NCBI GenBank assembly: GCA_002773135.1
Contig: PFCB01000028.1
Location: 4,203-68,202 of the forward strand
DNA from: Candidatus Magasanikbacteria bacterium CG10_big_fil_rev_8_21_14_0_10_47_10
GTDB lineage: Bacteria; Patescibacteriota; Patescibacteriia; Magasanikbacterales; UBA922
Direction: 5' to 3'
DNA length: 64,000 nt
The translations under genes and the position numbers were made by a program. The notes beneath the pieces are model-generated. The model was not told where the DNA came from, searched no databases, and worked only from the letters and a program-made list of their open reading frames with translations. Shown here piece after piece: positions 45,563 to 64,000 of the stretch. Each line of letters begins with the position of its first letter. Position 1 is the first letter of the stretch.

Positions 45563-46747
45563 TCAAAAATTTAAATGGCGCAATGTATGAAAAAGTGATA
45601 CATATCGCGCCGTGGTATTACGCACATGAAATATCTCAGCCTCATGATCCTTTCTGATCGGGTGTTCATCACCGCAAATCAAGCCCGCCATATATGTGGC
45701 AAGTGCCTCTGTCTCTGAGTAAGAAAATGAACGATATCCAACTTGAGTAAGAACCGCCGCTGTCGGGCTGTTGTCTGGCGTTATTCCAATAATCGCACTT
45801 CCACTCCCAACATAATCTATCACCTTTGATGGGAGAAACGGACTATCCGGATAGTTAGCGTCAATTGCAATCAGGCAGTCTGCCCGAGTCATATGTTCCA
45901 AGCTTGTTTCATACGAAACCGGGTCAGATACCATTACAATATCCGCAAGGTCATACTTCTTTACCAGATTCATTACATCATCCTTTCCATAGCCGGAATA
46001 GGGATTGCTTGCACCAATAAGATGTACGCGCACCCGTGATCTCAGCTCCGGCTTTTCCCGCAGCATACGGCTCAGAGAATCAAACAAGACAGAAGGGGTA
46101 CGCTGTTTGTAAAAAGCGCCGATGTGGCTCAACACAAATTTTGAACGGCCAGGCTTCGCCGCCGCGGGATATTCAGAATAACAATGTGGCACAACCAGTG
46201 CCTTCTCTTGGAAAGAAGCCGGGTATTTACTCATTACCACTCTTTTTGCCACGTCATTGGTAAAAATAATACTGTCACTCTGCTTCATGACAAATGCTTC
46301 ACGTCTTTTTTCCAAAATACCTCCCATGCCGGAAAATGCCTTATATGGATTGTCGATCCATGGATCACTAAAATGAGAGACAAAAGGTCGCTTCAAAATC
46401 TTTTTGAGCATGGCTCCCAGAATGTTGCTATCCTGCGGATTGGAAAATGAAAATATCACATCAATATCATGTTCCGCGCAAATAGCAACAACTCGTTTTT
46501 TGAGATCCCGAAAATACCGCGTCCTGTACATGGCTCGCTTGAATCGGCCAAGCAGGCCACTCCCACCGCATGAAAACTGGGGGATGAAATATACCGGAAA
46601 GTCGCTTTTATACACCTGCTCGCTTTCATACGTAACCACTACCGGATCAATCCCCTGCTTGTGCCATTCCGGTAACATTTTGCCAATTAAAATAGCTTGC
46701 GGGCGAATGGCCGGTGGTGTCCAGAAGCTGAGTACAAGAATCTTCAT
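45563..46747 (-). CDS. GT-B-fold glycosyltransferase-like protein
   Basis: Start at MKILVLSFWTPP; C-terminal half resembles GT1/GT4 nucleotide-binding domain (LPSKVIDYVGSGSAIIGI). Confidence 0.45.
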   Translation of the reverse strand: MKILVLSFWTPPAIRPQAILIGKMLPEWHKQGIDPVVVTYESEQVYKSDFPVYFIPQFSCGGSGLLGRFKRAMYRTRYFRDLKKRVVAICAEHDIDVIFSFSNPQDSNILGAMLKKILKRPFVSHFSDPWIDNPYKAFSGMGGILEKRREAFVMKQSDSIIFTNDVAKRVVMSKYPASFQEKALVVPHCYSEYPAAAKPGRSKFVLSHIGAFYKQRTPSVLFDSLSRMLREKPELRSRVRVHLIGASNPYSGYGKDDVMNLVKKYDLADIVMVSDPVSYETSLEHMTRADCLIAIDANYPDSPFLPSKVIDYVGSGSAIIGITPDNSPTAAVLTQVGYRSFSYSETEALATYMAGLICGDEHPIRKDHEAEIFHVRNTTARYVSLFHTLRHLNF

Positions 46748-46748
46748 A

Positions 46749-48011
46749 TTATGACATGAGTGGTTTCCCGTGAACAAGAAGATATTTAAACCAGGATCCG
46801 GCGAGCAAGGAGGTAACAATTGCAATAAGCACGAGCGTAACAAAAAACATTTCATTAATAATACCAAGATCAAACGCTACCGTGGCAAGGACTATGCCGG
46901 GACCACCGCGCGTATTCATAGCCACGGCAAAATTCACGCTGGTCAGCCAATCTTGCTTTGCAAGACGGGCGGCAAACAATGTGCCCGCAGCCTCAAAGGC
47001 AGTAGTAAACACCAGAAACCCAATGAAGAATGAAATATCAAGGTGATGTATAAGATCCAACTTCAGCCCAACAATGGCAAAATACAGGGGAATGAAAAAA
47101 GCCAATGACATATCTTTGATTCCCGTTTTGACCGTGGCAAACGTCTCTTCCGGCAGTGTTCCCACAACAATACCCGCAAGGAAAGCCCCAAATACAATGT
47201 TCACATTAAGAATACTCGCGATTGCCGCAAACAAAAAACAGATAAAAAGAGTATATGCCGCAACAGATGATTTAATGAGAAAATTTAAACGGAGGGTGTT
47301 AGTGTACCGAATCAGTTTTGGCATTACAAAAAGCGTAACGGCAAAAAAGGAGCACGTTATCAAAATGGTTGTTATGATGTTCGATTGAGTCAACGAGTCA
47401 CTGCTCACCAGTCCTGTGGCAATTGCGAGCGCAACCCACAAGAGAACATCCTGAATCGTGGCGGTCGACAGAACAATTCTGGCAAAGCGTGTATGTATTA
47501 TTTTTAAATCCAAAAAAATTCGAGATATCACGGGAATCGATGTGACGGCCATCGCAATGGCTATCACCATTGTCAGAGCTGCCATATTCCCCTTTACCCC
47601 AAGGACGGAAGAAAAATCGTAGTACTGTGGAGATAGCCAGCCGACAACAAATGGTATCGCCGTTGCGCCAATAATAAGAGCCCCAATAATCTTTTTATCA
47701 CCCTTGTTTACTGTTTGCCGCAGCTCAAATCCTGAAATGAACATCAGCAGTATCAACCCCATCCAGGAAAGTATTGCAAGCAGTTTCCCCTCACCATCAA
47801 ACGCGTGAAAGAGCCAGCTATATATGTTTGGAAACATGTACCCCAATACGGTCGGCCCCATCACAAGACCACCAACAATTTCGCCGATAACCTTTGGCAT
47901 CCTGTATTTTTGAAACAAATAGCCGCCATAATGCGCCGCAGCCAAAAGAATCACAATCGCCAAAAAAAAATGCGTTAATTCAAAATTTGTGAGTGTGATA
48001 AATTCCGGCAT
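46749..48011 (-). CDS. Cation:proton antiporter (CPA2/KefB/NapA-like Na+(K+)/H+ exchanger)
   Basis: 420 aa, ~12 TM; N-terminal FFLAIVILLAAAHYGGYLFQKYRMPKVIGEIVGGLVMGP typical of Na_H_Exchanger family. Confidence 0.75.
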   Translation of the reverse strand: MPEFITLTNFELTHFFLAIVILLAAAHYGGYLFQKYRMPKVIGEIVGGLVMGPTVLGYMFPNIYSWLFHAFDGEGKLLAILSWMGLILLMFISGFELRQTVNKGDKKIIGALIIGATAIPFVVGWLSPQYYDFSSVLGVKGNMAALTMVIAIAMAVTSIPVISRIFLDLKIIHTRFARIVLSTATIQDVLLWVALAIATGLVSSDSLTQSNIITTILITCSFFAVTLFVMPKLIRYTNTLRLNFLIKSSVAAYTLFICFLFAAIASILNVNIVFGAFLAGIVVGTLPEETFATVKTGIKDMSLAFFIPLYFAIVGLKLDLIHHLDISFFIGFLVFTTAFEAAGTLFAARLAKQDWLTSVNFAVAMNTRGGPGIVLATVAFDLGIINEMFFVTLVLIAIVTSLLAGSWFKYLLVHGKPLMS

Positions 48012-48016
48012 ATGAG

Positions 48017-48562
48017 CTACTCATTTTCACGATACGGATGAAAAATCACCCCATGCAATTCGAGGATATCTATCCCGCATGCTTTGGCTTTCTGTCTGGC
48101 CTGCTCAATCAGCTCCATAAAAAGCTCGTGGTCTCTATCTATATCTATATACAAATCTTCTTTGTCGAGCATGATATATTTCGCGTCGATTTTTTGAATA
48201 ATTGATTCAAGATTATCAATGCCCGTCTTTGTTTCAATTTTTGGTACCAGTCCCACGTGGGGGGGCAACTGAACGCGGATTTTGTATATTTCTTCCGGAT
48301 CTTCCACATTTGATACAGCAAAGTGCTTTATATGCGGGAACCGATCGACCAATGTGATCGTATCCTCCAGCGAAATGCTTGGCCGTGGCGGTTTTGACCT
48401 TCCTTGCGGATAGTCCAAATATACGTCATAGTCGACAAGCTCGCCTAATAGCTTCACAAGCGCGTCTCTATCCTTTAGCCAAGCAACATTAATCCGGATG
48501 ACGGCGTCCGCCGGGACATTCAAAGGGGTGGCCGTAAGAAGATGATTTGAAATGACAAGCAT
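48017..48562 (-). CDS. Pyruvate-kinase-like / PEP-utilising TIM-barrel domain protein (short, 181 aa)
   Basis: Segment HVGLVPKIETKTGIDNLESIIQKIDAKYIMLDKEDLYIDI resembles the PK/HpcH barrel strand-loop (KIENQEGVDN...GDLGVEI). Confidence 0.3.
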   Translation of the reverse strand: MLVISNHLLTATPLNVPADAVIRINVAWLKDRDALVKLLGELVDYDVYLDYPQGRSKPPRPSISLEDTITLVDRFPHIKHFAVSNVEDPEEIYKIRVQLPPHVGLVPKIETKTGIDNLESIIQKIDAKYIMLDKEDLYIDIDRDHELFMELIEQARQKAKACGIDILELHGVIFHPYRENE

Positions 48563-48567
48563 AAGTT

Positions 48568-49005
48568 TTATTTAAGATCCTGAATTTTTTTGATAATTTG
48601 GCTTGTTGATATGCCATCGTGATAGCCAAGCTTTACGATAACACCGCCAACCTCGGCAATTGCGCCCGCTCCCGGCGTCTCCTCGCCTTCCCCCCACCCT
48701 GCTCCTGGACCTTTGGCAAGGATATGAGGCTTTACCAACCGAATATTCTTACATGGCGTGAGCTGATCTTGTATCATGACTTCGTCAACGCACGACAAAT
48801 GCTCTACGACGTACAATCGCTGTTCCTGACTTATGATAGGACGACGCTTAAACTCTTCGGCAACTTCATCGGTAAAAATTCCAACAACAAGTTTGTCGCC
48901 CAGCGCTCTTGCCTCCTTGAGGAGTTCAACATGGCCGCTATGAAGCATATCAAATACTCCATATGTATAGACAATTTTTTGTTCGCTATTCATAGTATGA
49001 TTCAT
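48568..49005 (-). CDS. Cytidylyltransferase-like nucleotidyltransferase (TagD glycerol-3-phosphate cytidylyltransferase / RfaE domain II family)
   Basis: 145 aa; (H/T)xGH motif GVFDMLHSGH. Confidence 0.75.
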   Translation of the reverse strand: MNHTMNSEQKIVYTYGVFDMLHSGHVELLKEARALGDKLVVGIFTDEVAEEFKRRPIISQEQRLYVVEHLSCVDEVMIQDQLTPCKNIRLVKPHILAKGPGAGWGEGEETPGAGAIAEVGGVIVKLGYHDGISTSQIIKKIQDLK

Positions 49006-50207
49006 TAGGTATGATTGAGATACATTTGCTTAAACAACGCCACGGTTTCATCTGTTGCATTTCCACGATTGAACAAAAGTTGATCGTGAAGCGCCGGCGC
49101 GTCTCTTCTTTTAATACTGCCGCGTATTAATCCATCTATGTGCGTATCAAGATCCTGAAGGTCTTTTACCAAATACCCATACTCATCCCGGAAATCTCCC
49201 AGCGAGTTCATTTCATGTGTCTCAAAAAATTTTGGTATGTCCAAAAAAATCATCGGCTTGCCAAGCAAGTAATATTCAATCCATATCGTGCTAATGCATG
49301 TCATAGCGATATCACTTGCCATGACATATTCAGTTGAATCTTGATTCATGAGATTATAGATTCGCTTCGCTCTTAAATTTTCTTCCTTGAAAAATTCTTC
49401 CCAGTCAACAGCGCCGCTGCTCTTTTTGTTGGATGGATCTATATACGCACCGGGATGTACTTTGATAATGAGGTTTACATTGTGTCTATCGGGAATAGTT
49501 AGAATATCCTCCAGCCAAGTAAAAATACTGGTGTGCTGATTCCATGTAGGCGCATAAAATACTGTCGGCAGATCTGGGTTAAGTCCAATGCGTTCAAAAA
49601 GCGCTTTTTTATCAACTGTTTTACGAAATAAATCATCTGATTTTGGCCCCCCCAATCTATGGATCATCGGAATGGCTTCAATCGCATGATCAGCGCAGTA
49701 CGCAAGGAAATCCTTTTCATAGGCAGGTCCGGTAATAATCGTATCCGTCATACGCTCAATTGCCGGTGAAAACACATCATACTTTGTTTTTGATGTGATG
49801 GTATGGGGAAAATTGATTTTATACCTCGCACGTTTATGCACATGAATATCATAGGAAAGCGTCGCGTTTACATAAAAATCAACACCAAATAACCAATTCG
49901 TCCAGACCACATTCGCCCACTTCGGAAGCGGCGGCCCGAAATCTTTTCGAATTAACGCTCGAAGCGGTCCACCGACTGCGGCGTTGGATGTATATACCAC
50001 CAAAGCACCGTCCTCGTGGACACGCATCATCACATTGTATATATAGAAAAATTCATTTGTCGTGGTTGTTTCGACAACATACACAGGATGCTTTCGCATT
50101 CGTGCTTTCACAATCGCGCCGTTAATGACCACAATATGAGGTACTTCGCATAGCCGAACCCCAATATTATATAAGCGAATCCAAATTTTCTTCAGTAGTT
50201 CTTCCAT
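49005..50207 (-). CDS. CDP-glycerol (CDP-alditol) glycerophosphotransferase, TagB/TagF family
   Basis: 400 aa; motif TVFYAPTWNQ matches the YAPTWR signature of Glyphos_transf. Confidence 0.7.
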   Translation of the reverse strand: MEELLKKIWIRLYNIGVRLCEVPHIVVINGAIVKARMRKHPVYVVETTTTNEFFYIYNVMMRVHEDGALVVYTSNAAVGGPLRALIRKDFGPPLPKWANVVWTNWLFGVDFYVNATLSYDIHVHKRARYKINFPHTITSKTKYDVFSPAIERMTDTIITGPAYEKDFLAYCADHAIEAIPMIHRLGGPKSDDLFRKTVDKKALFERIGLNPDLPTVFYAPTWNQHTSIFTWLEDILTIPDRHNVNLIIKVHPGAYIDPSNKKSSGAVDWEEFFKEENLRAKRIYNLMNQDSTEYVMASDIAMTCISTIWIEYYLLGKPMIFLDIPKFFETHEMNSLGDFRDEYGYLVKDLQDLDTHIDGLIRGSIKRRDAPALHDQLLFNRGNATDETVALFKQMYLNHT

Positions 50208-50225
50208 ACTTTGTACGAGGATATC

Positions 50226-52406
50226 TTAATTCTTCCCATTCCCTTCTATCGATACCAATAGTACGTCAGCCATATATTTCACCGCCCAATTCAGCGCTTC
50301 GTACCTTCCATACTCACCCGAAATCGGCCAACTTCCCCACACAGCTCCCAAACCGCCAAACCGCGGCTCCATCATATTTTGTCTCGCTTTCAAATACCCC
50401 TTCATGTTTTCCGCGGCATGCGTATACGTTTCAATACCCGTCTTTTTGTACACTTTTTGGCAAGTAACTGCTGTTTGTGCAATACCTGTTAGACATGCCC
50501 AGTCAGCGGTTCCCTGCCAATCAGATCCCAGTCTTCCCGGAATCATTCCAATATCGTCCATCTGAGATACTATCCCGTCAATTGCTTTGCGCGCGGCACT
50601 CATATACCGCTGATCATCCAGCATTTCACCAATATCCCACAAACCATCAACCGTATAGGCCATGGTATGGAGCAAGGCATCATCCTTTTTTTGAAAATCG
50701 GCGTCAGCAAACCATCCATATTCATTCTGACACGTTGTGGTGTGTTCTGCTGCTCTGCGGCCCGCCTCTACCAACGTTTGATCCTTTTGATCAAGACCAA
50801 GGGCAACCAGCGGGGCTATTGCGTATATATTGTATGTTGTGGTTTCCGTGTTGACACTGGATGCGTTATCAATAATCCAACGCCCCTCTTTATTCTGTTC
50901 CCTACTTGCTATCCAATTTGCTGCTTTGTTTGCTCCGTCAAGATATTTTTCAAGTCCGGTTTCCTTGTACAGCGCAAACAGCCCACGGATGACTTGTCCC
51001 GTATCAAAGACTGCTTTATTTGGGCTTACCCTGATGTTGCCGCCGTGCACTGCGCCATCATCATGCATTATTGCCAACTCCCAATTTCCCATTTGTTTCG
51101 CACGCTGCATGAGATCGCTATCTGAAAAAAATTTGGAGGCATGAATCATGGTTGGAATGATATATCCCGTTGTCTCCGGATATGATGGCTGCCAGCCACT
51201 GCCATTTTCTTTTCCATTTGACACAATACTAACGCCTCGACTCACGCCCCCATCAGGCGTTGCATCATGCGCCCGCACCAGCCAGTCCACACTATGGCGC
51301 AAGTGCGTTGTATCAGTGCCGGCAAACGCGTAGTTGCGACTTTCGAGTGCGCCACTAAAAACGGCAGCCTGCTTTTTTTGCTTCTTTCTCTTTGACCGAG
51401 CGACAATACGTTTCAAAAACGAAGCTTTTTTCTTTGGCGCCGCCTGTATACTGCCAATAAAACATATCTTCTCCAAGGTCACTCGAAAAAAAGGCATTGT
51501 ACTGACAAGGTTCTCGAGCCCAAGAAAAAAATTGAATAGAGGCACCTGCACCCACTTTGGTGCAATATATCGAAAACGTAATTCTTCAAACAACCAAAAG
51601 TGAATGCCCCACCCTGCCCCTGAGTAGCCAATTGGCGTGACAAATGTTTGATCACACCATTTTTCAATGTCGCGATACGAAAAATATGCGTCATATGCCA
51701 GGCCCCAACTTCGGCGCTTTTCCATGGCAGGCATCATACGAAATCGTTTGTACAATTCCTTTGAATTATACTTATTGTACACCTCCAACGCGACATATCC
51801 CTGTGGCTTTGTTGTCCGTGCCATTTCGGCAAAAGCTTGTTCCGGCGCGCGCAAATGCTGATAGACTCGAATGCTAATGGAAAAATCCGCGACAGCATCC
51901 TTGAACGGCATATCTTCCAACTGGGCGCATACCAACCAATACCCCGGCTCACGACGCTTTGTTGCTTGAAGAAGCGTCAGGGATGTATCAACGCCAATAT
52001 GCACTGCTGCTTCTGGATAGCTTGATAACAATCTTCCGTTTCCACATCCGCCATCAATAATAGTCTTACCCGCCAAATCTATGTCTTTTGTGAGTCTCTT
52101 TACCGCCCGGAGCTCTGATTCATGGGTATAGAGTCCCCAAGGTGTCCCTTGCTTTTGCAGATAACTATCATATTTTTTTGCGTAACTGGTTGCGTTTTTG
52201 TCCTGATCCCAATGCCGCTTATGCGTGGATGGCGCGTATGTATCATTTGGGTACAAAATTGGTATGCCATCCACAATCGGATAGGTGCTGTGACAATCTG
52301 CGCATCTCAGTAGGTTGTTCCCTTCTTTTTGTGACAGACTCAAGTCACCGCGACATCGTCGTGATGGACAGCAAAGTGCAGCAATGAATTCACGAGAAAG
52401 AGACAT
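50226..52406 (-). CDS. Three-module protein: Trm112-like zinc-ribbon + class I SAM methyltransferase + large C-terminal domain of unknown function
   Basis: 726 aa; CPSRRC...CADCHSTYPIVDGIPIL; SAM motif IIDGGCGNGRLL; C-terminal ~400 aa unassigned. Confidence 0.5.
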   Translation of the reverse strand: MSLSREFIAALCCPSRRCRGDLSLSQKEGNNLLRCADCHSTYPIVDGIPILYPNDTYAPSTHKRHWDQDKNATSYAKKYDSYLQKQGTPWGLYTHESELRAVKRLTKDIDLAGKTIIDGGCGNGRLLSSYPEAAVHIGVDTSLTLLQATKRREPGYWLVCAQLEDMPFKDAVADFSISIRVYQHLRAPEQAFAEMARTTKPQGYVALEVYNKYNSKELYKRFRMMPAMEKRRSWGLAYDAYFSYRDIEKWCDQTFVTPIGYSGAGWGIHFWLFEELRFRYIAPKWVQVPLFNFFLGLENLVSTMPFFRVTLEKICFIGSIQAAPKKKASFLKRIVARSKRKKQKKQAAVFSGALESRNYAFAGTDTTHLRHSVDWLVRAHDATPDGGVSRGVSIVSNGKENGSGWQPSYPETTGYIIPTMIHASKFFSDSDLMQRAKQMGNWELAIMHDDGAVHGGNIRVSPNKAVFDTGQVIRGLFALYKETGLEKYLDGANKAANWIASREQNKEGRWIIDNASSVNTETTTYNIYAIAPLVALGLDQKDQTLVEAGRRAAEHTTTCQNEYGWFADADFQKKDDALLHTMAYTVDGLWDIGEMLDDQRYMSAARKAIDGIVSQMDDIGMIPGRLGSDWQGTADWACLTGIAQTAVTCQKVYKKTGIETYTHAAENMKGYLKARQNMMEPRFGGLGAVWGSWPISGEYGRYEALNWAVKYMADVLLVSIEGNGKN

Positions 52407-52409: not shown

Positions 52410-53951
52410 TTATGATTTAAATATTACGTTTTTCATTATTTCTTTTTTGTAAATAGTCCAAAGGGCTTCCATACTTTCCCCGCCACGCTCCCACGCCTTA
52501 AAATAATTGTACTCGTGACCGGTACCCAAAACGGCTGCCACGTATTGCTCAAGCGCGCGTTCGTACTTCTCATTTTTAAAATCCTTTTTTAATACTTCTA
52601 GAATTTTTGCGGCAAGCGTTGTCATATCATGGTGCACAAAGACATTTGGCAATTTTTTTGTTGTACCCAAATTTCCCAGTTGAATCGCCGGCTTATTGTA
52701 AAATGCCGCCTCAGCAATGCTGGTACTGTTGGGGCTAATGATCATATCCATTTTTTGCAAGATACTATCGTTTGGGATCCTATAATCAACCAGTTTCACG
52801 TTGACAGTTCGCGCCACCTTTTCAATGTATGATGGCGGACGAAATCCAACCATACCGGGATGCTCCTTTACCACCAATGTGTAGTCCTTTGGCAATGACA
52901 TGGCCACCTGTCGAGCGGTTTCTATCTGATTGCTAAAATATGGTGCCATTACATCAATGGTTGCTTCGGGCTGAAACTGGAGTGGAAAATACACAAATGC
53001 GCCAGCCTTTTCCAAAGGATAATATTCTCGCGTCTGCATCTTGCGTGTATATATCTTTGGCGCGTAGTGATCTCTAAGCTTGATTACAGGTGGCCTGTAA
53101 TCAACGGTTATTCCTGTGCTCTCCAACTCATTCACTTGTTTTTTTGTATACCACTTTACAATTTGGTAGTATGGCGAAATTTCAGTCCGCAGCCACTGTT
53201 TCAGTGGTGTTTTCTTTCCTTTCAGAACAGGTATTTGATAGTCCGGAACCTTAAATTCTTTCCGAAATTCCGCAATGTACTCCTTTGCTTTATCCAAACG
53301 TGGGGAGCGTATCTTTCCTTCGCGCAACTGATCCACATAGTCATAAAAAGGCCCCTCATCATCAAAATGATTGTAGGTAAAGAGAAAGTATCCCTTTATT
53401 TTTGAGTCTGTCACAGCCATCATGGGAACGCCTTGCCTGTGCGCATACAGGTTAAACATAATATGTGGAAGGGAGACAAAATTCGGCGCAATGATTAAAT
53501 CCGGCTTAAATGTCTCAAAAAATTGTTTACTGTACTTGTATACGGCCATGACAAAATCAATGATTTCTTCATCGGATACATTCTGCCGAAAGCTATAGTA
53601 ATATTTATCCTTGTAGCACTTCACGTGATTGCGAAGTGTGGATACAACGGGCCAGATGGAGTCAATCCCCAAAGCATCACAAATTTCTTCCAGTGAATAT
53701 CTGTCACCGGCCAAATAGTCTTTTGGCCGACTCATTATTTCGTCGTTATTGATAATAAGTTCATATTTCGCGTCCGGCTGATTGACAATAAGGTCATGGG
53801 TTGTATTTTTGAATGTTAACGCGGCCAATACCGCACCATTTTCATATAACTTCCGTGCCAAAAATCGGCCAATGCCTTTCCCCCAGCCACGCTGTTGAAA
53901 AAGAATGATTCGTTTCCCTTGAAATTCATTTTGCTGACGTGCTTCACTCAT
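52410..53951 (-). CDS. Capsule-polysaccharide-biosynthesis family protein (KpsC/KpsS-like, PF05159-type) paralogue 1
   Basis: 513 aa; motif VYFPLQFQPEATID resembles LQ..xDS motif of KpsC/KpsS beta-Kdo transferases; paralogous to 55015..56451. Confidence 0.45.
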   Translation of the reverse strand: MSEARQQNEFQGKRIILFQQRGWGKGIGRFLARKLYENGAVLAALTFKNTTHDLIVNQPDAKYELIINNDEIMSRPKDYLAGDRYSLEEICDALGIDSIWPVVSTLRNHVKCYKDKYYYSFRQNVSDEEIIDFVMAVYKYSKQFFETFKPDLIIAPNFVSLPHIMFNLYAHRQGVPMMAVTDSKIKGYFLFTYNHFDDEGPFYDYVDQLREGKIRSPRLDKAKEYIAEFRKEFKVPDYQIPVLKGKKTPLKQWLRTEISPYYQIVKWYTKKQVNELESTGITVDYRPPVIKLRDHYAPKIYTRKMQTREYYPLEKAGAFVYFPLQFQPEATIDVMAPYFSNQIETARQVAMSLPKDYTLVVKEHPGMVGFRPPSYIEKVARTVNVKLVDYRIPNDSILQKMDMIISPNSTSIAEAAFYNKPAIQLGNLGTTKKLPNVFVHHDMTTLAAKILEVLKKDFKNEKYERALEQYVAAVLGTGHEYNYFKAWERGGESMEALWTIYKKEIMKNVIFKS

Positions 53952-58256: not shown

Positions 58257-58513
58257 TCATTAATCGTATCCACAACTTTCTTCTTCACGTTCAAATACTT
58301 TTCTGTTGCTTTTTTTTCAAGCTCCGGTGAGACCAGCCGCAATATTTCCTTTCCAAGAATTCTATACTGGCCCCCTACTTTATTTGCCTTAATCAAGCCT
58401 TTTTTTAAAAGCCGTTTCATTGTGCTCGAGCTTATCTTGAGCAGTTGCTGAGCCTCTGACGTCGTATAGATGCCATTGGGATCAACCGCATTGTGGGTTA
58501 TGTCGTCGTGCAT
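58244..58513 (-). CDS. Excisionase/AlpA-type helix-turn-helix DNA-binding protein (HTH_17-like)
   Basis: 89 aa; YTTSEAQQLLKISSSTMKRLLKKGLIKANKVGGQYRI matches the HTH_17 excisionase-family pattern; 13-nt overlap with the ABC gene start. Confidence 0.55.
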   Translation of the reverse strand: MHDDITHNAVDPNGIYTTSEAQQLLKISSSTMKRLLKKGLIKANKVGGQYRILGKEILRLVSPELEKKATEKYLNVKKKVVDTINEWKV

Positions 58514-58566
58514 ACGTTGCTTTCAGATACAGTGTATCATACTGATCTATCAGGTGTCAAAAAGGG

Positions 58567-60807
58567 TCATATGGTATCAAGTATGCGTTTTACCCGCCTT
58601 TCCCATGTATATGTATCCATCACCAACCGGTATGCCCTCTGTGCTGCAGCATTGGCACTTTCCCGGCTGTGACGCAGGCCATTGACTGCCCGGGCAATAC
58701 TGTTTGGATCACCCGGCTGGCAAAAAAAGGCCCTCTCCTCTGACAGTACTTCTCTGACACTTGGAAGATCTGAAGCAAGAATCGGACGATTGCTTGCCAT
58801 ATACTCAAACATCTTGAGGGGTGACATAAAGTACGCAAAGTGCTCTGTCCAGGGAAATGGCATAAGCAGTACATCGCAGGCCTTCTGATACCGAGCAATA
58901 ACCGGCTGCGCAAAATGCTCAACAAGCAACACCCTGTCACCAACACCTATTTCTTCTGCCATCTGCTGATATTCCTCTCTATGCCGTTTTTTACCCCCCA
59001 CAGCAAGAAACATCACATTTGAATCAAGCTGTTTCAATGCGGACAAAATATCTGCAATCCCTTTGTCCATTTCCAGTGTTTTGAATCGCCCCATGTAGCC
59101 AATAATAAATTTTTCTTGTGGCAAACCAAACGCGTCACGCGCCTGCTCTTTTGTTGTTGGGATATCAAAGATTGCAGGATCTACAGCATCAGGAAACACA
59201 TGTGTTTGTTTTTTTCGCGCATAGGTATCTGCGTATGTCTTTTCCAAATGCTGTGTGACAAAAATAATTGTATCTACTGTGCGAGATAGGAAGCGTTCAA
59301 CCACCTGATCAATGCCATTTCTTGGCATCTCATGGATCTCATACACGGTCTTGATGCGCAGACGAAAGAGGAGTATCAAAACCGATACCAGCAGCAGCAA
59401 ACGAGGTTCCCTACAGTATACGTGTGTTATGTGTTGTTCCCGTGCATATTGAATGTATTGAAATGCCCGTAACAAACTGTTGGGTGCATTACATTCTTGA
59501 ATGTCAAATTCTTCCCCACCACTACGCAATTTTTTTACCCCCAATACAAATTCGCAATCATGCTGTTTACCAAAAGCACGAGACATGGCAGCAATCTGTG
59601 CCCCACTTCCGGTACTTAGTGGAAATGTTATTGACGTCGCGTATAACAGATGCGCCTTTTGTTCACGCATACGTGTTAGAATGTGATCTGCTCTGGCATA
59701 CCATGTATATCTCTGCACGTCTTCAAATGCTTGCAAGCAAAGGCGCGTAGACACTGACGTATTGTTCTGAATATCTCTTATCGCATGTGCCAGTGACTTG
59801 CTATCTCCGGGCTTGACCAGCAACGCGTTCTTCTGATCTGCCAGGATCTCTCGTACACTTGGCAGATCACTTGCAATAATAGGACGCTTGCTTGCCATGT
59901 ATTCAAACATCTTTAGTGGTGACATACAATACGCAAAATGCTCTGTATATGGAAATGGCATCAGGAGCGCATTACAGGCCTTCTGATACAATGCCACCTC
60001 TCTTCTGGTCACAAATCCCTTAAAGTGAACCCTCTTTTTGACACCAAGTGCGTCTGCTTTGCGTGTATAGTGTGCAATGTCCGTGTCTGTTCCTCCAACA
60101 CAAAGAAAATGAGCAGTAGGAACCGACACCAATGATTCTAAAATAGAATCTATCCCCTTTTGCATGCCCATGGTACTAAATCTGCCAAAGTACCCAACAA
60201 CATATGATCCCAAAAGCATGCCCAGGCCTGCTTGCTGTCTTGCCTGCTCAATTGAAATATCTGATGCAAAAATGTCCATATCTACTGCATCTGGTTGGAT
60301 GAGTATATCTCTGCTAGGATGCATTTTTTTATACTGTTGCTTGAGCCCTTCTGTCACGGCAATGACATGCGTGACTCGTTTTGTAAAGAGCTGGAAGGCC
60401 CACTGCTTTGTCGCAAACACACGATGAACTTCAAAGGCAGTCTTGAATCCACGCAAACCAAATACCCACGCAACTTCTGGCTGTCTTGTATACACTAGAG
60501 TGTCTTTGTCCAATTTGAAAAAAAATAATTGCAGCAAAAACCACATTGTCTGTAGATGAAAACTTATTTTTCCTATCTTAGGATGCCACCTAAGAAAATC
60601 ATAGCTCTTGATCCGTTCTACATGAAATGAATCCTTTTTAAGACCATAGTAATCAAAAATAGTTGCATCTACTTCTTGCTTTCTTGTTGGCAAATACACC
60701 GTCACATCTGCGCCATGCATCGCAAACTGCTCACACATTTTGGTGATTTGGTATCCGCTGGCCTTTTGGCTTGGAATCGTAAGATTTGCGATGTATGCCA
60801 GTTTCAT
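58567..60807 (-). CDS. Dual-domain glycosyltransferase: two tandem GT-B (GT4-like) modules in one polypeptide
   Basis: 746 aa; near-identical C-terminal GT4 motifs in each half (LLMPFPYTEHFAYCMSPLKMFEYMASKRPIIASDLPSVREIL / LLMPFPWTEHFAYFMSPLKMFEYMASNRPILASDLPSVREVL); DNA-level direct repeat ~1.1 kb apart. Confidence 0.8.
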   Translation of the reverse strand: MKLAYIANLTIPSQKASGYQITKMCEQFAMHGADVTVYLPTRKQEVDATIFDYYGLKKDSFHVERIKSYDFLRWHPKIGKISFHLQTMWFLLQLFFFKLDKDTLVYTRQPEVAWVFGLRGFKTAFEVHRVFATKQWAFQLFTKRVTHVIAVTEGLKQQYKKMHPSRDILIQPDAVDMDIFASDISIEQARQQAGLGMLLGSYVVGYFGRFSTMGMQKGIDSILESLVSVPTAHFLCVGGTDTDIAHYTRKADALGVKKRVHFKGFVTRREVALYQKACNALLMPFPYTEHFAYCMSPLKMFEYMASKRPIIASDLPSVREILADQKNALLVKPGDSKSLAHAIRDIQNNTSVSTRLCLQAFEDVQRYTWYARADHILTRMREQKAHLLYATSITFPLSTGSGAQIAAMSRAFGKQHDCEFVLGVKKLRSGGEEFDIQECNAPNSLLRAFQYIQYAREQHITHVYCREPRLLLLVSVLILLFRLRIKTVYEIHEMPRNGIDQVVERFLSRTVDTIIFVTQHLEKTYADTYARKKQTHVFPDAVDPAIFDIPTTKEQARDAFGLPQEKFIIGYMGRFKTLEMDKGIADILSALKQLDSNVMFLAVGGKKRHREEYQQMAEEIGVGDRVLLVEHFAQPVIARYQKACDVLLMPFPWTEHFAYFMSPLKMFEYMASNRPILASDLPSVREVLSEERAFFCQPGDPNSIARAVNGLRHSRESANAAAQRAYRLVMDTYTWERRVKRILDTI

Positions 60808-60816
60808 AATCTGCTT

Positions 60817-62523
60817 CTACTTTTTTGCAATAAAGAAATAGCCGAGCGGCACGTGCTTTTCTGAAAGATGATTGCTCGGTCGTATGCGCGTTAGAAATTT
60901 TTTTATAAGCAAATAATCGAGCACCAGATGAATTTTTTCTGCGATCCGCTTCACAAATCGCGGCCGGTACAGCCCAAATTGCAATTGGAATCGCGTACTA
61001 AAGACGCCGGTACCCAGCTCGTGAATATGGATATCGGTAAAACCCGCGCGTTCGAACATTTTTTTCAATGCGGAGCCTGTGTACCGAAAATAGTCATCCG
61101 GCGAACCATGTACATGAAATAAAAATGGTGTGCACCCAACAAACCGACCACCTGATTTTAGAACTCGAAATCCCTCGTTCAAAACCGTTTGATAATCAAA
61201 TATATGTTCCAGCACGTTCATGCACACAATACCGTCATATGACCCGTCTTCCATTGGAAATGGCTGTTGAATGTCAAAACACAAATCACAGCCGGTATCG
61301 GGATTGATATTCACCACAAAAATATCATGCTCCCCTTTCATACGTTCATGGTAGCCGGAGCGTCTGTCTCCCCCAAGATCCAGGACCTTCCCATTGATTG
61401 ACTCTATCTTGGATAAGGCATCATACTCAAGACGCCGGAGTAATGACATTGGTGATTTCTTCATAGGAGTATTTTTTTGTATGTGAGTAAATATCTTTTT
61501 TATCAGGGCAGTGACACTATGTTGTTTCACAACGATGTCTCGTAAATGTACTCCAAGCGCTGTGCGCTCATTTTTTGATAATGTATATATCTCCTCTATT
61601 TTCTGCACGAATGCTGAAACATTATTTTTTTCATACATCAATTTTTCTGTATGAGAACCAAGGACATCAACCAGTGCATCATTGCATGTAAGGATCGGAG
61701 TCCCGCATGCCATTGCCTCAAGAATGGCTTTATCCAAGCTTCCGGTTGTGCTCATGTTTACAAACAAGTCAGCCTTTTGCAAATGTTCCGCGAGATCCTT
61801 ATTTGGCACAGACCCAACAAATGAAATATGCTGATCAAGCCCCATATTTCTTACTGCGTGCTTCAGCTCTTCCAAATATATCTCCTGAGAGGGAGTACCC
61901 GGTGCTCCAATAATGTCTGCTCTCAGCTCAATCCCCTTTTGTTTCAAAACATCAACAGCATGAATCATCAAGCCGTACCCTTTTACCGGTGAAATTCGTC
62001 CAACAGTAACTAATGTAAATACTTGACCTGACTCTGATTCCAAGCGTGGAGTAAATTGTTTTATATCTATCCCCTGATGAAGCACCCGGATCTTCTTGCT
62101 ATCTAATCGGCATCCTTTTGGCGTGGAGGTAAAAATGATGTTGACAAGTATTTCTGCAAGTCGCAATCGTGGAGACACATGACCATGTGCATACCACAGA
62201 GCGATTGGTTTGCGCATAAGTTTCCAAAGGAACCCGCCCAGCAACACATATTCAACAATCATGTGCACATAGACTTGATCGTAGTCTTTTCTATATTTCC
62301 AAATATACGAATAGAGACGCCTAAGATATGTAAAACGAGAAGCGCCGTCTTCTTTGCCAAGACTATGTACAGTTACAGTATCCGGCAAATCAATAGCTCC
62401 TTTACTCAAGCAAACAACAGTAACCGTATCTACATATTGAGATAATTCTGCTACCCAGCGGTGTGTAAACGCCAACACATCGTCATTCGCATCCATCTTT
62501 TCACATAAAAAAAGCAACCTCAT
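60817..62523 (-). CDS. Glycosyltransferase (GT4) - class I SAM methyltransferase fusion (candidate chain-terminating/modifying enzyme)
   Basis: N-terminal GT-B; C-terminal SAM motif VLDLGGDRRSGY...GGRFVG; start set at second Met to abut upstream stop. Confidence 0.7.
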   Translation of the reverse strand: MRLLFLCEKMDANDDVLAFTHRWVAELSQYVDTVTVVCLSKGAIDLPDTVTVHSLGKEDGASRFTYLRRLYSYIWKYRKDYDQVYVHMIVEYVLLGGFLWKLMRKPIALWYAHGHVSPRLRLAEILVNIIFTSTPKGCRLDSKKIRVLHQGIDIKQFTPRLESESGQVFTLVTVGRISPVKGYGLMIHAVDVLKQKGIELRADIIGAPGTPSQEIYLEELKHAVRNMGLDQHISFVGSVPNKDLAEHLQKADLFVNMSTTGSLDKAILEAMACGTPILTCNDALVDVLGSHTEKLMYEKNNVSAFVQKIEEIYTLSKNERTALGVHLRDIVVKQHSVTALIKKIFTHIQKNTPMKKSPMSLLRRLEYDALSKIESINGKVLDLGGDRRSGYHERMKGEHDIFVVNINPDTGCDLCFDIQQPFPMEDGSYDGIVCMNVLEHIFDYQTVLNEGFRVLKSGGRFVGCTPFLFHVHGSPDDYFRYTGSALKKMFERAGFTDIHIHELGTGVFSTRFQLQFGLYRPRFVKRIAEKIHLVLDYLLIKKFLTRIRPSNHLSEKHVPLGYFFIAKK

Positions 62524-63515
62524 AAAACAAAATTTGCAATTGCGTCTATCCACGCGTCTTTTCTATCTGTTGAAATTATTCTAATTGTATCGCCGGATTT
62601 GGTTTCATACCCGGCACTCCCAACCGCGCTCATGATAATGGGCGTGCCGGCACACTCGGCTTCGCGAATGACCGAGCTATACCCCTCACTACGACTTGGC
62701 GACAAAAGGCAGTCCACGGTTTTTATATACCCTATTGGGTCGTCGGTCCATGCCTCAAAAAAAACATGTCGCTCCAGCACGAGATCCGCGACCTTCTGCA
62801 TAAGCATCTTTTTTTGCGAGCCATCTCCAACAATCAAGAGCCGGTAGCCCGGCTTTAGCACTGCGACCTGCGCCCACACATCTATCAGCCATGATACATT
62901 CTTTACCGGTTCCAGCCGCCCCAGAAACAAAAAAATAGCATCCGCACCGGGATATTTTTTTTTCGCGTCATTTCTTGGTATGTGATCTTTGATGATGCTG
63001 CCATCCATGATCAAGGGAGCGACAGTCAGCGTATGCTCGGGCACGCCCATTACCCGCATGCTCTGTTTTATCCGCTCGCCAACAACACGCACGCGGCTCG
63101 CACGTTTAATCACAAACAAACCGAGATGATATTGAATCCGCTCTTTGGCTGATCCCTTTTTATAATATTCTGATCCGTAAAAGTCACCATGCACCTGGAC
63201 TTCCAGCTCCGCGCGCGACATGATGGCAAGAACCCAACCTGCCAACCCGGTAAAAAAAGGATCCTGCGTTGTTATTTTTTTTATATGGTATTTCCCAATA
63301 ATCCGATCACCCAGCAGCACAAGGCGAAAAAATTGCGCAGCCTTGTTGCCGCCCGTACCGGTGACTGTTACCTCATCCGACAAAGCAATTTTTTGATACA
63401 CTCGCGTCGGAATGATAATTTCCAGCGCTTCATTTTTTCCATACTCAATCATGCGCTGAGCAACACCGCCGGTAGAATCAAATATTTTCCTATCCAAACT
63501 AATCATGAGTTGCAT
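62520..63515 (-). CDS. Glycosyltransferase family 4 (GT-B)
   Basis: 331 aa; EX7E-region GTPIIMSAVGSAGYE. Confidence 0.75.
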   Translation of the reverse strand: MQLMISLDRKIFDSTGGVAQRMIEYGKNEALEIIIPTRVYQKIALSDEVTVTGTGGNKAAQFFRLVLLGDRIIGKYHIKKITTQDPFFTGLAGWVLAIMSRAELEVQVHGDFYGSEYYKKGSAKERIQYHLGLFVIKRASRVRVVGERIKQSMRVMGVPEHTLTVAPLIMDGSIIKDHIPRNDAKKKYPGADAIFLFLGRLEPVKNVSWLIDVWAQVAVLKPGYRLLIVGDGSQKKMLMQKVADLVLERHVFFEAWTDDPIGYIKTVDCLLSPSRSEGYSSVIREAECAGTPIIMSAVGSAGYETKSGDTIRIISTDRKDAWIDAIANFVL

Positions 63516-64000
63516 ATCTGTCGCAATGCTTGCTGAGTATTATTCATCATAGTATCAAACGAAAACGTTTCAAAAAAATCTTCCGGAGGTCGCCCATTGG
63601 GTCTATCAATCAAAAAAGTCCGTATGGCTTTTTCCAAATCATCGCGGTCATTGTACACAAAGAGTGTTCCTGTGCCGGCCGCCCGTATCAACTCCGGATT
63701 CCCAGAACTGTTACTTGCCAGAACAAAGGTACCCAGCATCATCGCCTCCAATATCGCATGAGAGAGTCCTTCGTAACCGCTGTTGAGGATAAACGCGTCA
63801 GCCTGCCGCATGTGTGACAGTGTTTCATTTCTTGAACACACGCCAAGCAGGTGGACTGTTTCATCCAGAGCCAAACGCGATACATGTGACTCGATATCTT
63901 TTCGTGTAGGGCCGTCGCCAATAATTTTTAGTTGTAATGCGGGAAAATCATTTTTTAATCGATGCATGACATCAATGAGAACAATCATTCCCTTCCACGG
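63503..64000 (-). CDS. Glycosyltransferase family 4, C-terminal part (gene continues beyond window end)
   Basis: IIGDGPTRKDIESH...AFILNSGYEGLSHAILEAMMLGTFVLASNSSGNPELI; no stop between 63989 and 64000 in frame. Confidence 0.6.
   Translation of the reverse strand, partial: PWKGMIVLIDVMHRLKNDFPALQLKIIGDGPTRKDIESHVSRLALDETVHLLGVCSRNETLSHMRQADAFILNSGYEGLSHAILEAMMLGTFVLASNSSGNPELIRAAGTGTLFVYNDRDDLEKAIRTFLIDRPNGRPPEDFFETFSFDTMMNNTQQALRQICNS

Follow-up and report, generated by a model that had tools for sequence, protein, structure and literature searches.

Closest Described Systems and Overview of the Locus

Among described surface-glycan systems, the Gram-positive S-layer or O-antigen-type glycan pathways that depend on ATP-binding cassette (ABC) transporters are the closest analogues of the gene cluster treated here, a surface-glycan operon in a 64,000-nucleotide stretch (the window) of contig PFCB01000028.1 from a Candidatus Magasanikbacteria genome, i.e., from an uncultured, ultra-small bacterium of the candidate phyla radiation (CPR)/Patescibacteria. 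The operon runs from window position 64000 down to about 33909, with all genes on the minus strand. In the slg clusters, e.g., those of Geobacillus stearothermophilus NRS 2004/3a and Paenibacillus alvei CCM 2051T, the glycan grows in the cytoplasm on a lipid-linked primer, is capped by a fusion of methyltransferase and glycosyltransferase (GT), is exported by an ABC transporter and is transferred by an oligosaccharyltransferase of the Wzy_C(-TPR) type (PMC2943079). For WsaE, the fusion protein of G. stearothermophilus, a 2-O-methyl cap has been proposed to end the chain, while in the S-layer glycan of P. alvei, O-4 of N-acetylmannosamine (ManNAc) bears glycerate-2-phosphate, a substitution ascribed to a PF04464 domain whose cluster additionally contains a tagD-like gene (PMC2943079).

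Transfer of 2-keto-3-deoxy sugar acids is known from several further systems. KpsS and KpsC (GT107), which are retaining beta-Kdo transferases, make a linker of 3-deoxy-D-manno-oct-2-ulosonic acid (Kdo) on phosphatidylglycerol (PMC12887879), and in KpsC, an invariant QxxxD motif located directly after a beta-strand provides the nucleophile, its aspartate (PMC10148158). KpsS1 from Acinetobacter baumannii, with 30% identity to KpsS, has been shown by experiment to be a retaining pseudaminyltransferase and founded family GT118 (PMC12887879). In Tannerella forsythia, the TagB-like protein Tanf_01245 transfers pseudaminic acid (Pse) or legionaminic acid (Leg) onto N-acetylmannosaminuronic acid (ManNAcA) (PMC5420450). 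WbbB (GT99) is a structural relative of the KpsC/KpsS group. The flippase of T. forsythia is reported to be of the Wzx type. As a system of another kind, the lic phosphocholine pathway comprises the transporter LicB, the kinase LicA, the cytidylyltransferase LicC and the transferase LicD.

The operon of the window most likely builds a cell-surface sugar chain that contains pseudaminic acid, a sialic-acid-like sugar. In the model that we favor, the block described below constitutes the assembly and export half of the operon, and the product is an ABC-exported heteroglycan with ManNAc, O-methyl groups, one phospho-substituent and Pse, built from modules found across Patescibacteria; our confidence in this model, which refers to the whole of it including the proposed mechanism, is evenly balanced. 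With the slg clusters, the locus shares a tight operon of GT genes with presumed growth on a cytoplasmic lipid carrier, a methyltransferase-GT fusion, ABC export and a Wzy_C/Wzy_C-TPR O-oligosaccharyltransferase, and with that of P. alvei also a TagD-like and a PF04464 protein. It differs from them in that their exporter is of the Wzm/Wzt type, whereas a fused MsbA/PglK type is present here, that they contain neither Pse genes nor KpsS-like transferases, and that the pyruvate kinase (PK)-like partner encountered here is not described there. The T. forsythia system for general protein O-glycosylation, whose glycans end in Pse or Leg (Tanf_01245/BFO_1060), resembles the locus by a Pse pathway beside a TagB-like transferase that depends on cytidine monophosphate (CMP) and bears an HP motif, by ManNAc(A) chemistry in the same glycan and by methyltransferases in the locus; on the other hand, its host is a didermic member of the Bacteroidota and the similarity to BFO_1060 reaches just 23-29 bits against a cut-off of 200.

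Linkage of KpsC/KpsS-Like Proteins to Nonulosonate and ABC Transporter Genes

Families were called by Pfam gathering scores and NCBIfam equivalog cut-offs. Between positions 64000 and 33909, neighboring genes in the list of open reading frames (ORFs) either overlap or leave no more than 53 nucleotides (nt) between them, and because all of them lie on the minus strand, they form a single continuous operon of more than 30 kb. A first-pass annotation of the same DNA had already stated that the co-directional block runs on from the nonulosonate genes, and this is confirmed, as is the overall gene content that it listed, for which families and ORFs were recovered with Pfam and NCBIfam with small corrections. 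Four genes come in addition to those that it named, encoding an HTH_17 protein, a 726-aa methyltransferase protein, a 181-aa PK-like mini-barrel and a CPA2 antiporter. The nonulosonate genes include pseB (43412-44416), pseC (42273-43415) and pseI (41160-42263). Since their products score above the respective equivalog cut-offs (PseB, 428.4 vs. 407.75 bits; PseC, 487.2 vs. 423.5 bits; PseI, 406.6 vs. 340.25 bits), the nonulosonate is of the pseudaminic-acid type.

Two proteins encoded in the operon fall into the KpsC/KpsS family PF05159, the gathering score of which is 20 bits. PF05159-a (55015-56451; 478 amino acids, aa; 40.8 bits), a KpsC/KpsS-like protein probably of the GT-B type, contains the motifs PLNFQPE and KEHP, and PF05159-b (52410-53951; 513 aa; 22.7 bits) contains PLQFQPE and KEHP. 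In BLASTP, they behave as distant paralogues (E = 2e-15, 24% identity). The sequence of PF05159-a is identical to that of a protein from Candidatus Magasanikbacteria bacterium CG10_big_fil_rev. Their assignment to the KpsC/KpsS family had been put forward earlier on account of a PLQFQPE motif in both; the family holds for both, but the motif occurs in this form in the 513-aa protein and reads PLNFQPE in the 478-aa protein.

A scan of one genome per GTDB species yielded relatives of PF05159-a in 224 species genomes, the best 80 of which stem almost exclusively from Patescibacteria. Neighborhoods were counted for these best 80 of 224; 75 of them have enough upstream sequence and 37 have full 10-kb flanks. 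At least one gene for nonulosonate biosynthesis is situated within 10 kb of the PF05159-a relative in every complete locus (37/37). In 50 of the 75 loci, the PF05159 gene is immediately preceded by an ABC transporter gene of the same strand, and 13 more have such a gene on the same strand within a few kb, several of them with a tandem second PF05159 gene in between. When neighbor ORFs from the 80 loci were clustered in an unbiased manner, clusters of PF05159 (79), PseB-like (65) and ABC (63) proteins ranked first, followed by DegT/PseC-like (56), NeuB (50) and CTP_transf_3 (47) proteins. Of the new evidence for PF05159 enzymes that use the nonulosonate and cooperate with the ABC exporter, this linkage carries the most weight, and the coupling of ABC and PF05159 genes is among the most original parts of the finding. 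The linkage also supports the earlier proposal that the KpsC/S-like paralogues transfer the nonulosonate encoded in the locus, and with KpsS1 as a proven Pse transferase this central idea has a precedent. PF05159-a is the prime candidate for a CMP-pseudaminic acid transferase.

Tandem duplicates of PF05159-a, about 39-41% identical to the protein of the window, are present in the related loci L018, L034, L035, L054, L057-L059 and L073, in some cases between the ABC gene and the primary copy, and suggest two successive nonulosonate transfers. In addition, a fragment of a 53%-identical PF05159-a occurs on a contig labeled Candidatus Woesearchaeota (DPANN; L083, 10001-10780), with CPR-DPANN exchange or faulty binning as conceivable explanations.

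Fold and Putative Active Site of the PF05159 Proteins

Sequence searches against the PDB returned KpsC as the only match of PF05159-a (E = 1e-5 with the single sequence, 9e-8 with the family profile), while WbbB was not significant with the family profile (E = 0.69). An AlphaFold2 (AF2) model calculated with 72 homologues (predicted local distance difference test, pLDDT, 94.3; predicted template modeling score, pTM, 0.92) consists of two Rossmann-like domains and a helical insertion. Foldseek retrieved GT-B proteins generally from the PDB, with KpsC showing both the highest identity (14-17%) and the highest target-normalized TM-score (0.39-0.44). Among the 72 homologues, Q285, P286 and E287 are invariant and H322 and P323 are conserved to at least 90%; in the 97 full-length family ORFs from the 80 loci, x[FY]QPE is found in 90 and KEHP likewise in 90. 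The KEHP sequence of PF05159-a aligns with VKVHP of the N-terminal KpsC module (KpsC-N), and the HP motif implicated in CMP phosphate binding is present.

With KpsS1 (GT118) and KpsC/KpsS (GT107), the proteins have in common a PF05159 match above the gathering score and, presumably, a two-Rossmann GT-B-like fold and a CMP-activated 2-keto-3-deoxy sugar acid as donor. Like KpsC/KpsS, they possess the HP motif and, where KpsC has the QxxxD aspartate behind its central strand, likewise an acidic residue. Coupling to Pse genes is shared with KpsS1, the likeness to GT118 being one of genomic context. They differ from KpsC by the low identity given above for PF05159-a, by a glutamate in place of the invariant aspartate and by lack of conservation of the first glutamine of the motif in paralogue a. 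Furthermore, the distance between the conserved PH of the N-domain and the central-strand motif is longer in the window protein than that between His94 and Asp160 in KpsC-N, which is a statement on spacing and not on a structural alignment. At the level of the loci, KpsMT/ED are missing here, the host is a monoderm-like CPR bacterium and an MsbA-type ABC protein is encoded in the operon.

In PF05159-a, the strand comprising residues 277-281 is followed by NFQPE, and the equivalent part of PF05159-b reads QFQPE, i.e., QxxxE. The invariant QxxxD aspartate occurs in neither a nor b, and the aligned position is taken by an invariant glutamate (E287 in a). HMMER places QxxxE of PF05159-b on QxxxD and HP on HP of the C-terminal module of Thermosulfurimonas dismutans KpsC (KpsC-C; E = 0.16). 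From this alignment and from the position directly after the strand, we infer that the glutamate would stand in for the KpsC aspartate as the nucleophile.

The ABC Exporter, the Proposed Ligation of the Glycan and the Possibility of a Lipid Anchor

PF05159-a is part of module A, which comprises HTH_17, ABC and PF05159-a genes. Its first gene (58244-58513) encodes a small DNA-binding protein of 89 aa (PF12728, 45.4 bits), and the same HTH_17-ABC arrangement exists in L003, L004 and L089. The ABC gene (56448-58256), which overlaps the gene for PF05159-a, specifies a half-transporter of 602 aa with fused transmembrane and nucleotide-binding domains (ABC_membrane, PF00664, and ABC_tran). Its NCBIfam scores are highest for HepA (363.9 bits, cut-off 725), followed by MsbA (292.5, cut-off 602), a glucan exporter (259.8, cut-off 733) and PglK (226.8, cut-off 1000). 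The HepA family serves heterocyst polysaccharide export. The protein is a candidate flippase or exporter for a lipid-linked glycan of the MsbA/PglK/HepA type, and the previous description as an MsbA-like exporter agrees with the ranking, which is headed by HepA, MsbA and the glucan exporter and not by peptide exporters. A role in bacteriocin or peptide export was rejected, as a C39 peptidase domain is lacking and peptide models score lower. ABC-dependent export as proposed before stands insofar as a fused ABC exporter is present, but it is not of the ABC-2 type of the classical pathways: instead of an ABC-2 permease with a separate nucleotide-binding protein, ABC_membrane and ABC_tran reside on a single polypeptide, and no KpsMT, KpsE/D, TagGH or ABC-2 transporter is encoded in the scanned part of the window.

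Upstream on the same contig, past the end of the window, follow more genes for GT4 enzymes, an epimerase-GT4N fusion, an MFS-like membrane protein and a Wzy_C-family protein (668 aa, about 9 kb upstream, its gene being partly covered). In L088 and L090, a PglC-type Bac_transf protein and a Wzy_C-TPR protein adjoin module B, which is described below. An S-layer gene was not identified beside the locus.

A lipid-primer function of the PF05159 enzymes in the style of KpsS/KpsC is a serious rival to the favored model. PF05159-a would prime a membrane glycerolipid such as phosphatidylglycerol with Pse, PF05159-b or tandem copies would extend it and the MsbA-like ABC protein would flip the product, a surface glycan resembling lipoteichoic acid (LTA) or a lipoglycan that would need neither undecaprenyl phosphate nor an oligosaccharyltransferase. 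The Kdo linker that KpsS and KpsC make on phosphatidylglycerol speaks for this, together with the resemblance of the ABC protein to the lipid flippase MsbA, the overlap of its gene with that for PF05159-a, the conservation of the pair in two thirds of the loci (50/75), the frequency of second and tandem PF05159 copies and the rarity of Bac_transf (5/80) and Wzy_C-TPR (8/80) genes within 10 kb of PF05159-a. Against it stand the Bac_transf and Wzy_C-TPR genes next to module B in L088/L090 and the Wzy_C gene on the contig of the window itself, and the many GT4 enzymes and the methyltransferase-GT fusion are in keeping with a chain that grows on a lipid carrier. To our knowledge, KpsS1 is the only characterized family member that transfers Pse, and it acts in a Wzy-dependent capsule repeat unit. 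On balance, we consider a glycerolipid anchor unlikely and retain the ABC-exported heteroglycan on a lipid carrier as the preferred model.

Candidate Enzymes for Chain Growth and Methylation and the FemAB-Like Protein

The part of the operon next to the window end is rich in GT4 genes. The first one (63503-64000) leaves the window, which covers its C-terminal part (Glycos_transf_1, 99 bits); on the full contig, it encodes 375 aa (6178-7305 in L087). It is followed by a gene for a GT4 enzyme of 331 aa (62520-63515; Glycos_transf_1, 81.9 bits; Glyco_trans_1_4, 76.2 bits), by one for a 578-aa fusion of GT4 and a class I S-adenosylmethionine (SAM)-dependent methyltransferase (60817-62553; Glycos_transf_1 at residues 179-328, Methyltransf_11/23 at residues 386-509) and by one for a double GT4 of 746 aa (58567-60807) with two complete modules, i.e., two stretches that each match Glyco_trans_1_4 and Glycos_transf_1. 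Counterparts of the double GT4 with 762-763 aa exist in L001/L002, and it is a candidate bifunctional, repeat-forming transferase. Pfam supports at least five GT4 modules, of which the one at 45563-46747 is weak, in line with the four or more GT4 enzymes counted previously.

The 578-aa fusion is a candidate for both a glycosyltransferase and the enzyme that sets an O-methyl cap; Giovannonibacteria have a separate methyltransferase gene (216 aa) in a similar GT4-rich stretch. The first-pass annotation had considered the fusion suggestive of chain termination of the WbdD type. While the fusion of GT4 and Methyltransf_11 is real, Pfam detected neither a WbdD kinase domain nor a C-terminal coiled coil, and with GT4 at about residues 29-354 and the methyltransferase at 386-509, only some 70 residues follow, which leaves no room for a coiled-coil ruler. 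WsaE from G. stearothermophilus is the closer precedent.

Between the two PF05159 genes lies that for a FemAB/GNAT-superfamily protein (53948-55018; 356 aa), homologues of which are present in 15 of the 80 loci. It matches TIGR04421 (74.5 bits, E = 8e-21, cut-off 250), and Acetyltransf_6 is reached with 21.5 bits against a gathering score of 22. The earlier designation as a FemAB-like acyltransferase is upheld at the level of superfamily similarity; on the other hand, TIGR04421 stays below its cut-off and searches with PF02388, even at E <= 5, and against the PDB gave no match. We regard the protein as a candidate for tailoring of either the glycan or the nonulosonate, as an aminoacyl or acyl transferase.

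Module B and the PF04464/Cytidylyltransferase/PK-Like Triad

Module B consists of genes for PF05159-b, a methyltransferase with an (α/α)6-like domain, a TagB/F-like protein, a cytidylyltransferase-like protein, a PK-like mini-barrel, a GT4-like protein and WecB. It is syntenic in L089 and L090, which encode PF05159-b, a methyltransferase protein of 704-735 aa, PF04464, the cytidylyltransferase-like protein, a PK-like protein of 182-193 aa, a GT4-like protein and Epimerase_2, L089 having one extra methyltransferase gene within the module. The window follows the L089/L090 order, with a CPA2 antiporter gene inserted. In L088, the module B genes occur without the large methyltransferase protein and in partly different order, and L013 has the module in a different arrangement. 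The PF04464, cytidylyltransferase and PK-like genes recur in L088-L091, and since this triad is kept even in the more distant L091, where the gene order differs, the three proteins behave as one functional unit. The triad is another of the most original parts of the finding.

The TagB/TagF-family phosphotransferase-like protein (49005-50207; 400 aa) contains the motifs YAPTWNQ and KVHPG, and the proposed affiliation of the YAPTWNQ protein with this family is corroborated by a PF04464 match of 40.1 bits (gathering score 22.1) that spans residues 182-321. A PDB search with the single sequence gave no matches; the family profile matched the TagF-like polymerase Cps3D (8qoy) with E = 1.8e-6 by aligning GcPKsD...VFYAPTWnq, which covers the conserved G-P-(K/R)-x-D ... 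YAPTW(R/N) region of PF04464. The family is narrow (25 clusters) and its named sources are all Patescibacteria. With 400 aa and no extra domains, the protein has the size of a TagB-type single-unit primase.

The neighboring gene (48568-49005) shares 1 nt (position 49005) with the PF04464 stop codon and encodes a cytidylyl/adenylyl-transferase of the TagD/ECT/RfaE-II superfamily with 145 aa (CTP_transf_like, 63.1 bits). RfaE domain II (120.8 bits) ranks before TagD (TIGR01518, 59.6 bits) in NCBIfam, both below the cut-off, and the PDB matches are human ethanolamine-phosphate cytidylyltransferase (ECT; 1e-19), the cytidylyltransferase domain of Fom1 (1e-16) and TagD (3e-13). The former assignment as a glycerol-phosphate cytidylyltransferase is thus not sustained, as TagD would require 165.4 bits and RfaE domain II and human ECT are closer. 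Because the PF04464 protein and the cytidylyltransferase always travel with the PK-like mini-barrel, the phospho-donor of the TagB/F-like enzyme need not be cytidine diphosphate (CDP)-glycerol. Glycerate-2-phosphate in P. alvei provides a further reason why glycerol-phosphate is not the sole option, and its attachment to ManNAc fits the co-located wecB gene.

The PK-like protein (48017-48562; 181 aa) belongs to the superfamily of phosphoenolpyruvate (PEP)/pyruvate-binding barrels, resembling the A-domain of pyruvate kinase or HpcH, with sub-threshold Pfam matches (PK, 22.7 bits; HpcH_HpaI, 19.8 bits). An exhaustive search gave 327 representatives of this family of stand-alone proteins with about 175 aa, whose named sources are all CPR. 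The family profile matches pyruvate kinases with E = 2e-5 around PKIE..G..N and MLDKEDL, and the AF2 model (pLDDT 95.7) leads in Foldseek to the PK A-domain, class II pyruvate aldolases and citrate lyase beta (query-normalized TM-score 0.56-0.68). Compared with the active site of pyruvate kinase, the arginine/asparagine of strand 1, the aspartate of LD(Y)P.GR and the lysine, glutamate and aspartate residues for metal binding and acid-base catalysis appear to be kept, while the nucleotide-capping B domain appears to be absent. A divergent PEP mutase of a phosphonate route, an idea arising from the Fom1 match, was discarded, since the motifs PKIE..G..N and MLDKEDL are pyruvate kinase-like, PEP mutase and isocitrate lyase are missing among the 50 listed Foldseek matches, and the locus has no phosphonopyruvate decarboxylase.

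The triad calls to mind a succession of kinase, cytidylyltransferase and phosphotransferase as in LicA/LicC/LicD, in which the kinase activity of the mini-barrel is purely conjectural. By this functional analogy, a small alcohol would be phosphorylated, activated with cytidine triphosphate (CTP) and moved to the glycan as phospho-alcohol, although all three triad enzymes stem from folds and families other than those of the lic pathway. Fusions of the PK-like protein with the cytidylyltransferase or PF04464 were not found in an exhaustive fusion search, which revealed fusions with PQ-loop and HNH domains only. In some CPR genomes (P0273; L092, 5699-6525), the PK-like gene is fused to or directly follows that for a PQ-loop (SemiSWEET-like) membrane protein, a pairing that parallels LicB and hints at a coupling of transporter and enzyme.

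The 726-aa methyltransferase protein (50226-52406; Methyltransf_11, 59.7 bits) is composed of a Trm112-like Zn-ribbon, a SAM-dependent methyltransferase and a C-terminal domain of about 400 aa, which has sub-threshold matches only (GH127, the C-terminus of C5-epimerase, LanC-like, GH88) and a weak likeness to (α/α)6-barrels; orthologues of 704-735 aa occupy the same position in L089, L090 and L013. The CPA2 cation/proton antiporter (46749-48011; 420 aa; Na_H_Exchanger, 137.6 bits) separates the PK-like and GT4-like genes in the window only and is not found at that position in L088-L090. A 51%-identical copy adjoins the differently arranged module B of L013 (5967-7214), which points either to a functional linkage or to a shared insertion. 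The GT4-like protein (45563-46747; about 394 aa from the ATG at 46747; Glyco_transf_4, 24.6 bits, sub-threshold), whose counterparts of 395-408 aa stand next to Epimerase_2 in L088-L090, is a candidate ManNAc or other sugar transferase of this module.

The first-pass annotation had combined the families of modules A and B to a teichoic-acid/capsule hybrid, i.e., a backbone of glycerol-phosphate made by TagD and TagF and of nonulosonate added by KpsC/S-like polymerases, ABC export and a methyl stop of the WbdD type. The PF04464, CTP_transf_like and PF05159 memberships on which it was founded hold, TagF-like capsule polymerases exist and include Cps3D, which the PF04464 family profile matches, two PF05159 paralogues could mimic the dual KpsC modules, and an ABC exporter and methyltransferases are present. 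We nevertheless find such a polymer improbable. Evidence for poly(glycerol-phosphate) is lacking, given a PF04464 protein of TagB primase size without extra domains and a cytidylyltransferase that is no TagD equivalog; the obligatory PK-like partner is not explained by CDP-glycerol synthesis; at least five GT4 modules, including the double GT4, argue for a backbone of hexoses or N-acetylhexosamines; and a WbdD-like kinase or coiled coil is missing. A capsule system is further contradicted by the CPR host and by an exporter of the fused MsbA/PglK fold, not ABC-2, in the absence of KpsMT/KpsED and TagGH. It is very unlikely that the PF04464 protein is itself the nonulosonate transferase, placing Pse on ManNAc(A) like the TagB-like Tanf_01245, and that the PF05159, cytidylyltransferase-like and PK-like proteins serve another ulosonic or phospho-sugar branch. 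In favor of this reading, the acceptor of Tanf_01245 is ManNAcA, wecB and two UDP-sugar dehydrogenase genes are in the window, and the BFO_1060 model for the T. forsythia Pse/Leg transferase gives weak matches of 23.5 bits with the PF04464 protein and 28.7 bits with PF05159-b. Against it, these scores are far under the cut-off, and translational coupling and co-inheritance with a cytidylyltransferase from a superfamily that activates phosphate esters suit a donor of the CDP-alcohol kind. With its 25 clusters, the PF04464 family is also much narrower than the Pse genes, and it is PF05159-a, not PF04464, that tracks the nonulosonate genes.

Precursor, Tailoring and Flanking Genes

Module B ends with the gene for a non-hydrolyzing UDP-GlcNAc 2-epimerase (uridine diphosphate-N-acetylglucosamine 2-epimerase) of the WecB/MnaA type (44464-45561; TIGR00236 wecB, 378.5 bits, cut-off 210), which is predicted to supply UDP-ManNAc and stands outside the nonulosonate pathway. 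An assignment as NeuC/LegG of a legionaminic acid pathway was dismissed (NeuC, 89.3 bits, cut-off 235.9, vs. 378.5 bits for wecB). A KdsA homologue is not encoded in the scanned part of the window.

Distal to the pse genes, the operon continues with tailoring and activation genes identified through Pfam and NCBIfam (33909-40726). A GNAT N-acetyltransferase (40693-41154; 153 aa; Acetyltransf_1/3/7, about 44 bits) is a candidate PseH, and a CTP_transf_3 protein (34791-35546; 251 aa; Pfam) is a candidate CMP-ulosonate synthetase. The region between 33909 and 40726 also specifies a TIM-barrel-like (261 aa), a cupin-like (163 aa) and a haloacid dehalogenase (HAD) protein (249 aa), a GFO/IDH/MocA oxidoreductase (332 aa) and a membrane protein (292 aa). 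A protein of 787 aa in which an APH-type kinase is fused to a class III (GSA-like) aminotransferase is encoded at 37181-39544. Its gene is followed by those for the HAD phosphatase and the GFO/IDH/MocA oxidoreductase, and these genes may make an amino-alcohol or another tailoring group of the glycan. Homologues are found in the related loci for CTP_transf_3 (47/80), GFO (30/80) and Aminotran_3 (27/80).

Further potential tailoring genes were observed in other CPR genomes. Cassettes with FkbH_N, a carrier protein, a MaoC dehydratase and a short-chain dehydrogenase/reductase (SDR) adjoin the ABC/PF05159 pair or the cytidylyltransferase/PK-like/PF04464 triad (L003, 11485-15916; L091, 51-3258), and L003 additionally encodes an Antibiotic_NAT acyltransferase and an ACPS phosphopantetheinyl transferase. 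The probable function of these cassettes is N-acylation of the nonulosonate with a group of glycerate or hydroxyacyl origin. HisH/HisF-like pairs, present in 15-17 of the 80 loci, may make an acetamidino group.

Next to the operon lies a GC-rich island (window 29400-33900) with 55-69% GC vs. 42-48% in the flanks and sharp edges. Unlike those of the flanking operon, its genes occupy the plus strand; they encode a TPR/TM protein (29307-30179), a Cys-rich protein of 737 aa (30426-32639) with an N-terminal hydrophobic stretch and repeated PF11617 MopE 'DNNCDG' metal-binding motifs, and a 279-aa protein without a family match. The island looks like the result of horizontal transfer from a high-GC lineage or of a chimeric assembly. 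Just past it (25440-29319) are genes for an SDR epimerase/dehydratase-family protein and two UDP-sugar 6-dehydrogenase paralogues, which may feed uronic acids such as ManNAcA and glucuronic acid (GlcA) to the same glycan. The stretch from 326 to 25269 carries guaB, guaA and the genes of a de novo purine pathway that is nearly complete, including a 908-aa fusion of glutamine amidotransferase (GATase), SAICAR synthase and AIR carboxylase and a 629-aa fusion of GARS and formyltransferase. Such a set is notable in a CPR genome, as nucleotide biosynthesis is usually missing there.

Proposed Pathway

The substrates, the order of the steps, the role of the cap and the acceptor in the following scheme are those that we infer from gene content. 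A heteroglycan would be built on a lipid carrier at the cytoplasmic face of the membrane, where a PglC-type initiator is suggested by related loci only. GT4 enzymes would assemble the chain, with the double GT4 likely forming the repeat, and ManNAc would enter it from UDP-ManNAc provided by WecB. O-methyl groups would come from the GT4-methyltransferase fusion and the 726-aa methyltransferase protein. The TagB/F-like enzyme would add one phospho-linked small substituent from a CDP-donor made by the cytidylyltransferase-like enzyme, for which the PK-like mini-barrel may supply the phosphorylated precursor. Pse from PseB/C/I would be activated with CMP and transferred by PF05159-a and/or PF05159-b, likely by a retaining double-displacement in which the glutamate (E287 in a) serves in place of the KpsC aspartate. 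The finished lipid-linked glycan would then be flipped by the ABC half-transporter of the MsbA/PglK/HepA type, and the Wzy_C-family ligase encoded upstream would join it to an S-layer protein, a pilin or another envelope component.

Several observations weigh against this scheme. Regarding the transferase, the query-normalized TM-score of PF05159-a to KpsC is low (0.3) and generic GT-B 2-epimerases are better by E-value. The alignment of PF05159-b with KpsC-C is non-significant on its own, and a local alignment with KpsC-N offers an alternative register in which VVDQTF falls on FVDQTL (residues 297-302) with a 17-residue gap, so that the assignment of the nucleophile is not secure. Regarding the Pse pathway, no locus protein matches PseG in NCBIfam, the GNAT protein reaches only 29.3 bits with the PseH equivalog (cut-off 93), which makes its assignment weak, and the CTP_transf_3 protein scores 28.5 bits with PseF (cut-off 205.7) and higher, 87.6 bits, with KdsB-type models; non-orthologous replacements of PseG, PseH and PseF are possible. 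The ABC protein is below every NCBIfam cut-off, also with HepA, its best model, which makes the assignment of a substrate class tentative. As for initiation and ligation, the low counts of Bac_transf and Wzy_C-TPR genes around PF05159-a have been given above, and no initiating phosphoglycosyltransferase is encoded in the window. Finally, the literature searched yielded no biochemical or glycan data for any CPR bacterium.

Implications for Patescibacteria

CPR/Patescibacteria account for a large share of bacterial diversity and live attached to other cells, and their surface chemistry is almost unknown. In the full-text literature searched, no link between CPR and nonulosonic acids was found, and Patescibacteria and pseudaminic acid were co-mentioned in a single paper, once each and in passing. 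A farther-reaching reading of the data, which we offer as tentative and by no means probable, sees in the locus a lineage-wide, undescribed surface-glycan pathway of the Patescibacteria with a new KpsS-like family of Pse transferases that use a glutamate nucleophile and with a new triad for a phospho-substituent. Under the same tentative reading, the KpsS-like family would cap or prime the glycan with Pse and be coupled to the MsbA-type flippase such that export depends on the Pse step, and the mini-barrel, derived from pyruvate kinase, would be a PEP-dependent kinase for a scavenged small alcohol or acid (e.g., glycerol, glycerate or ethanolamine), followed by the cytidylyltransferase and the TagB-like enzyme. 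A glycan of this kind could be the surface determinant that these episymbionts show to their hosts.

The core genes recur across Patescibacteria and provide candidate enzymes for undescribed surface chemistry in this group. With relatives in at least 224 species-level genomes, the locus constitutes a concrete, clonable gene set. It includes candidate pseudaminyltransferases, a scarce class of enzymes that is wanted for glycoengineering and as drug targets, as well as a putative dedicated ABC flippase and a conserved PK-like mini-enzyme tied to a CDP-dependent transferase. If confirmed, the glycan would offer a handle for labeling and enriching uncultured CPR bacteria and for studying how they recognize their hosts.

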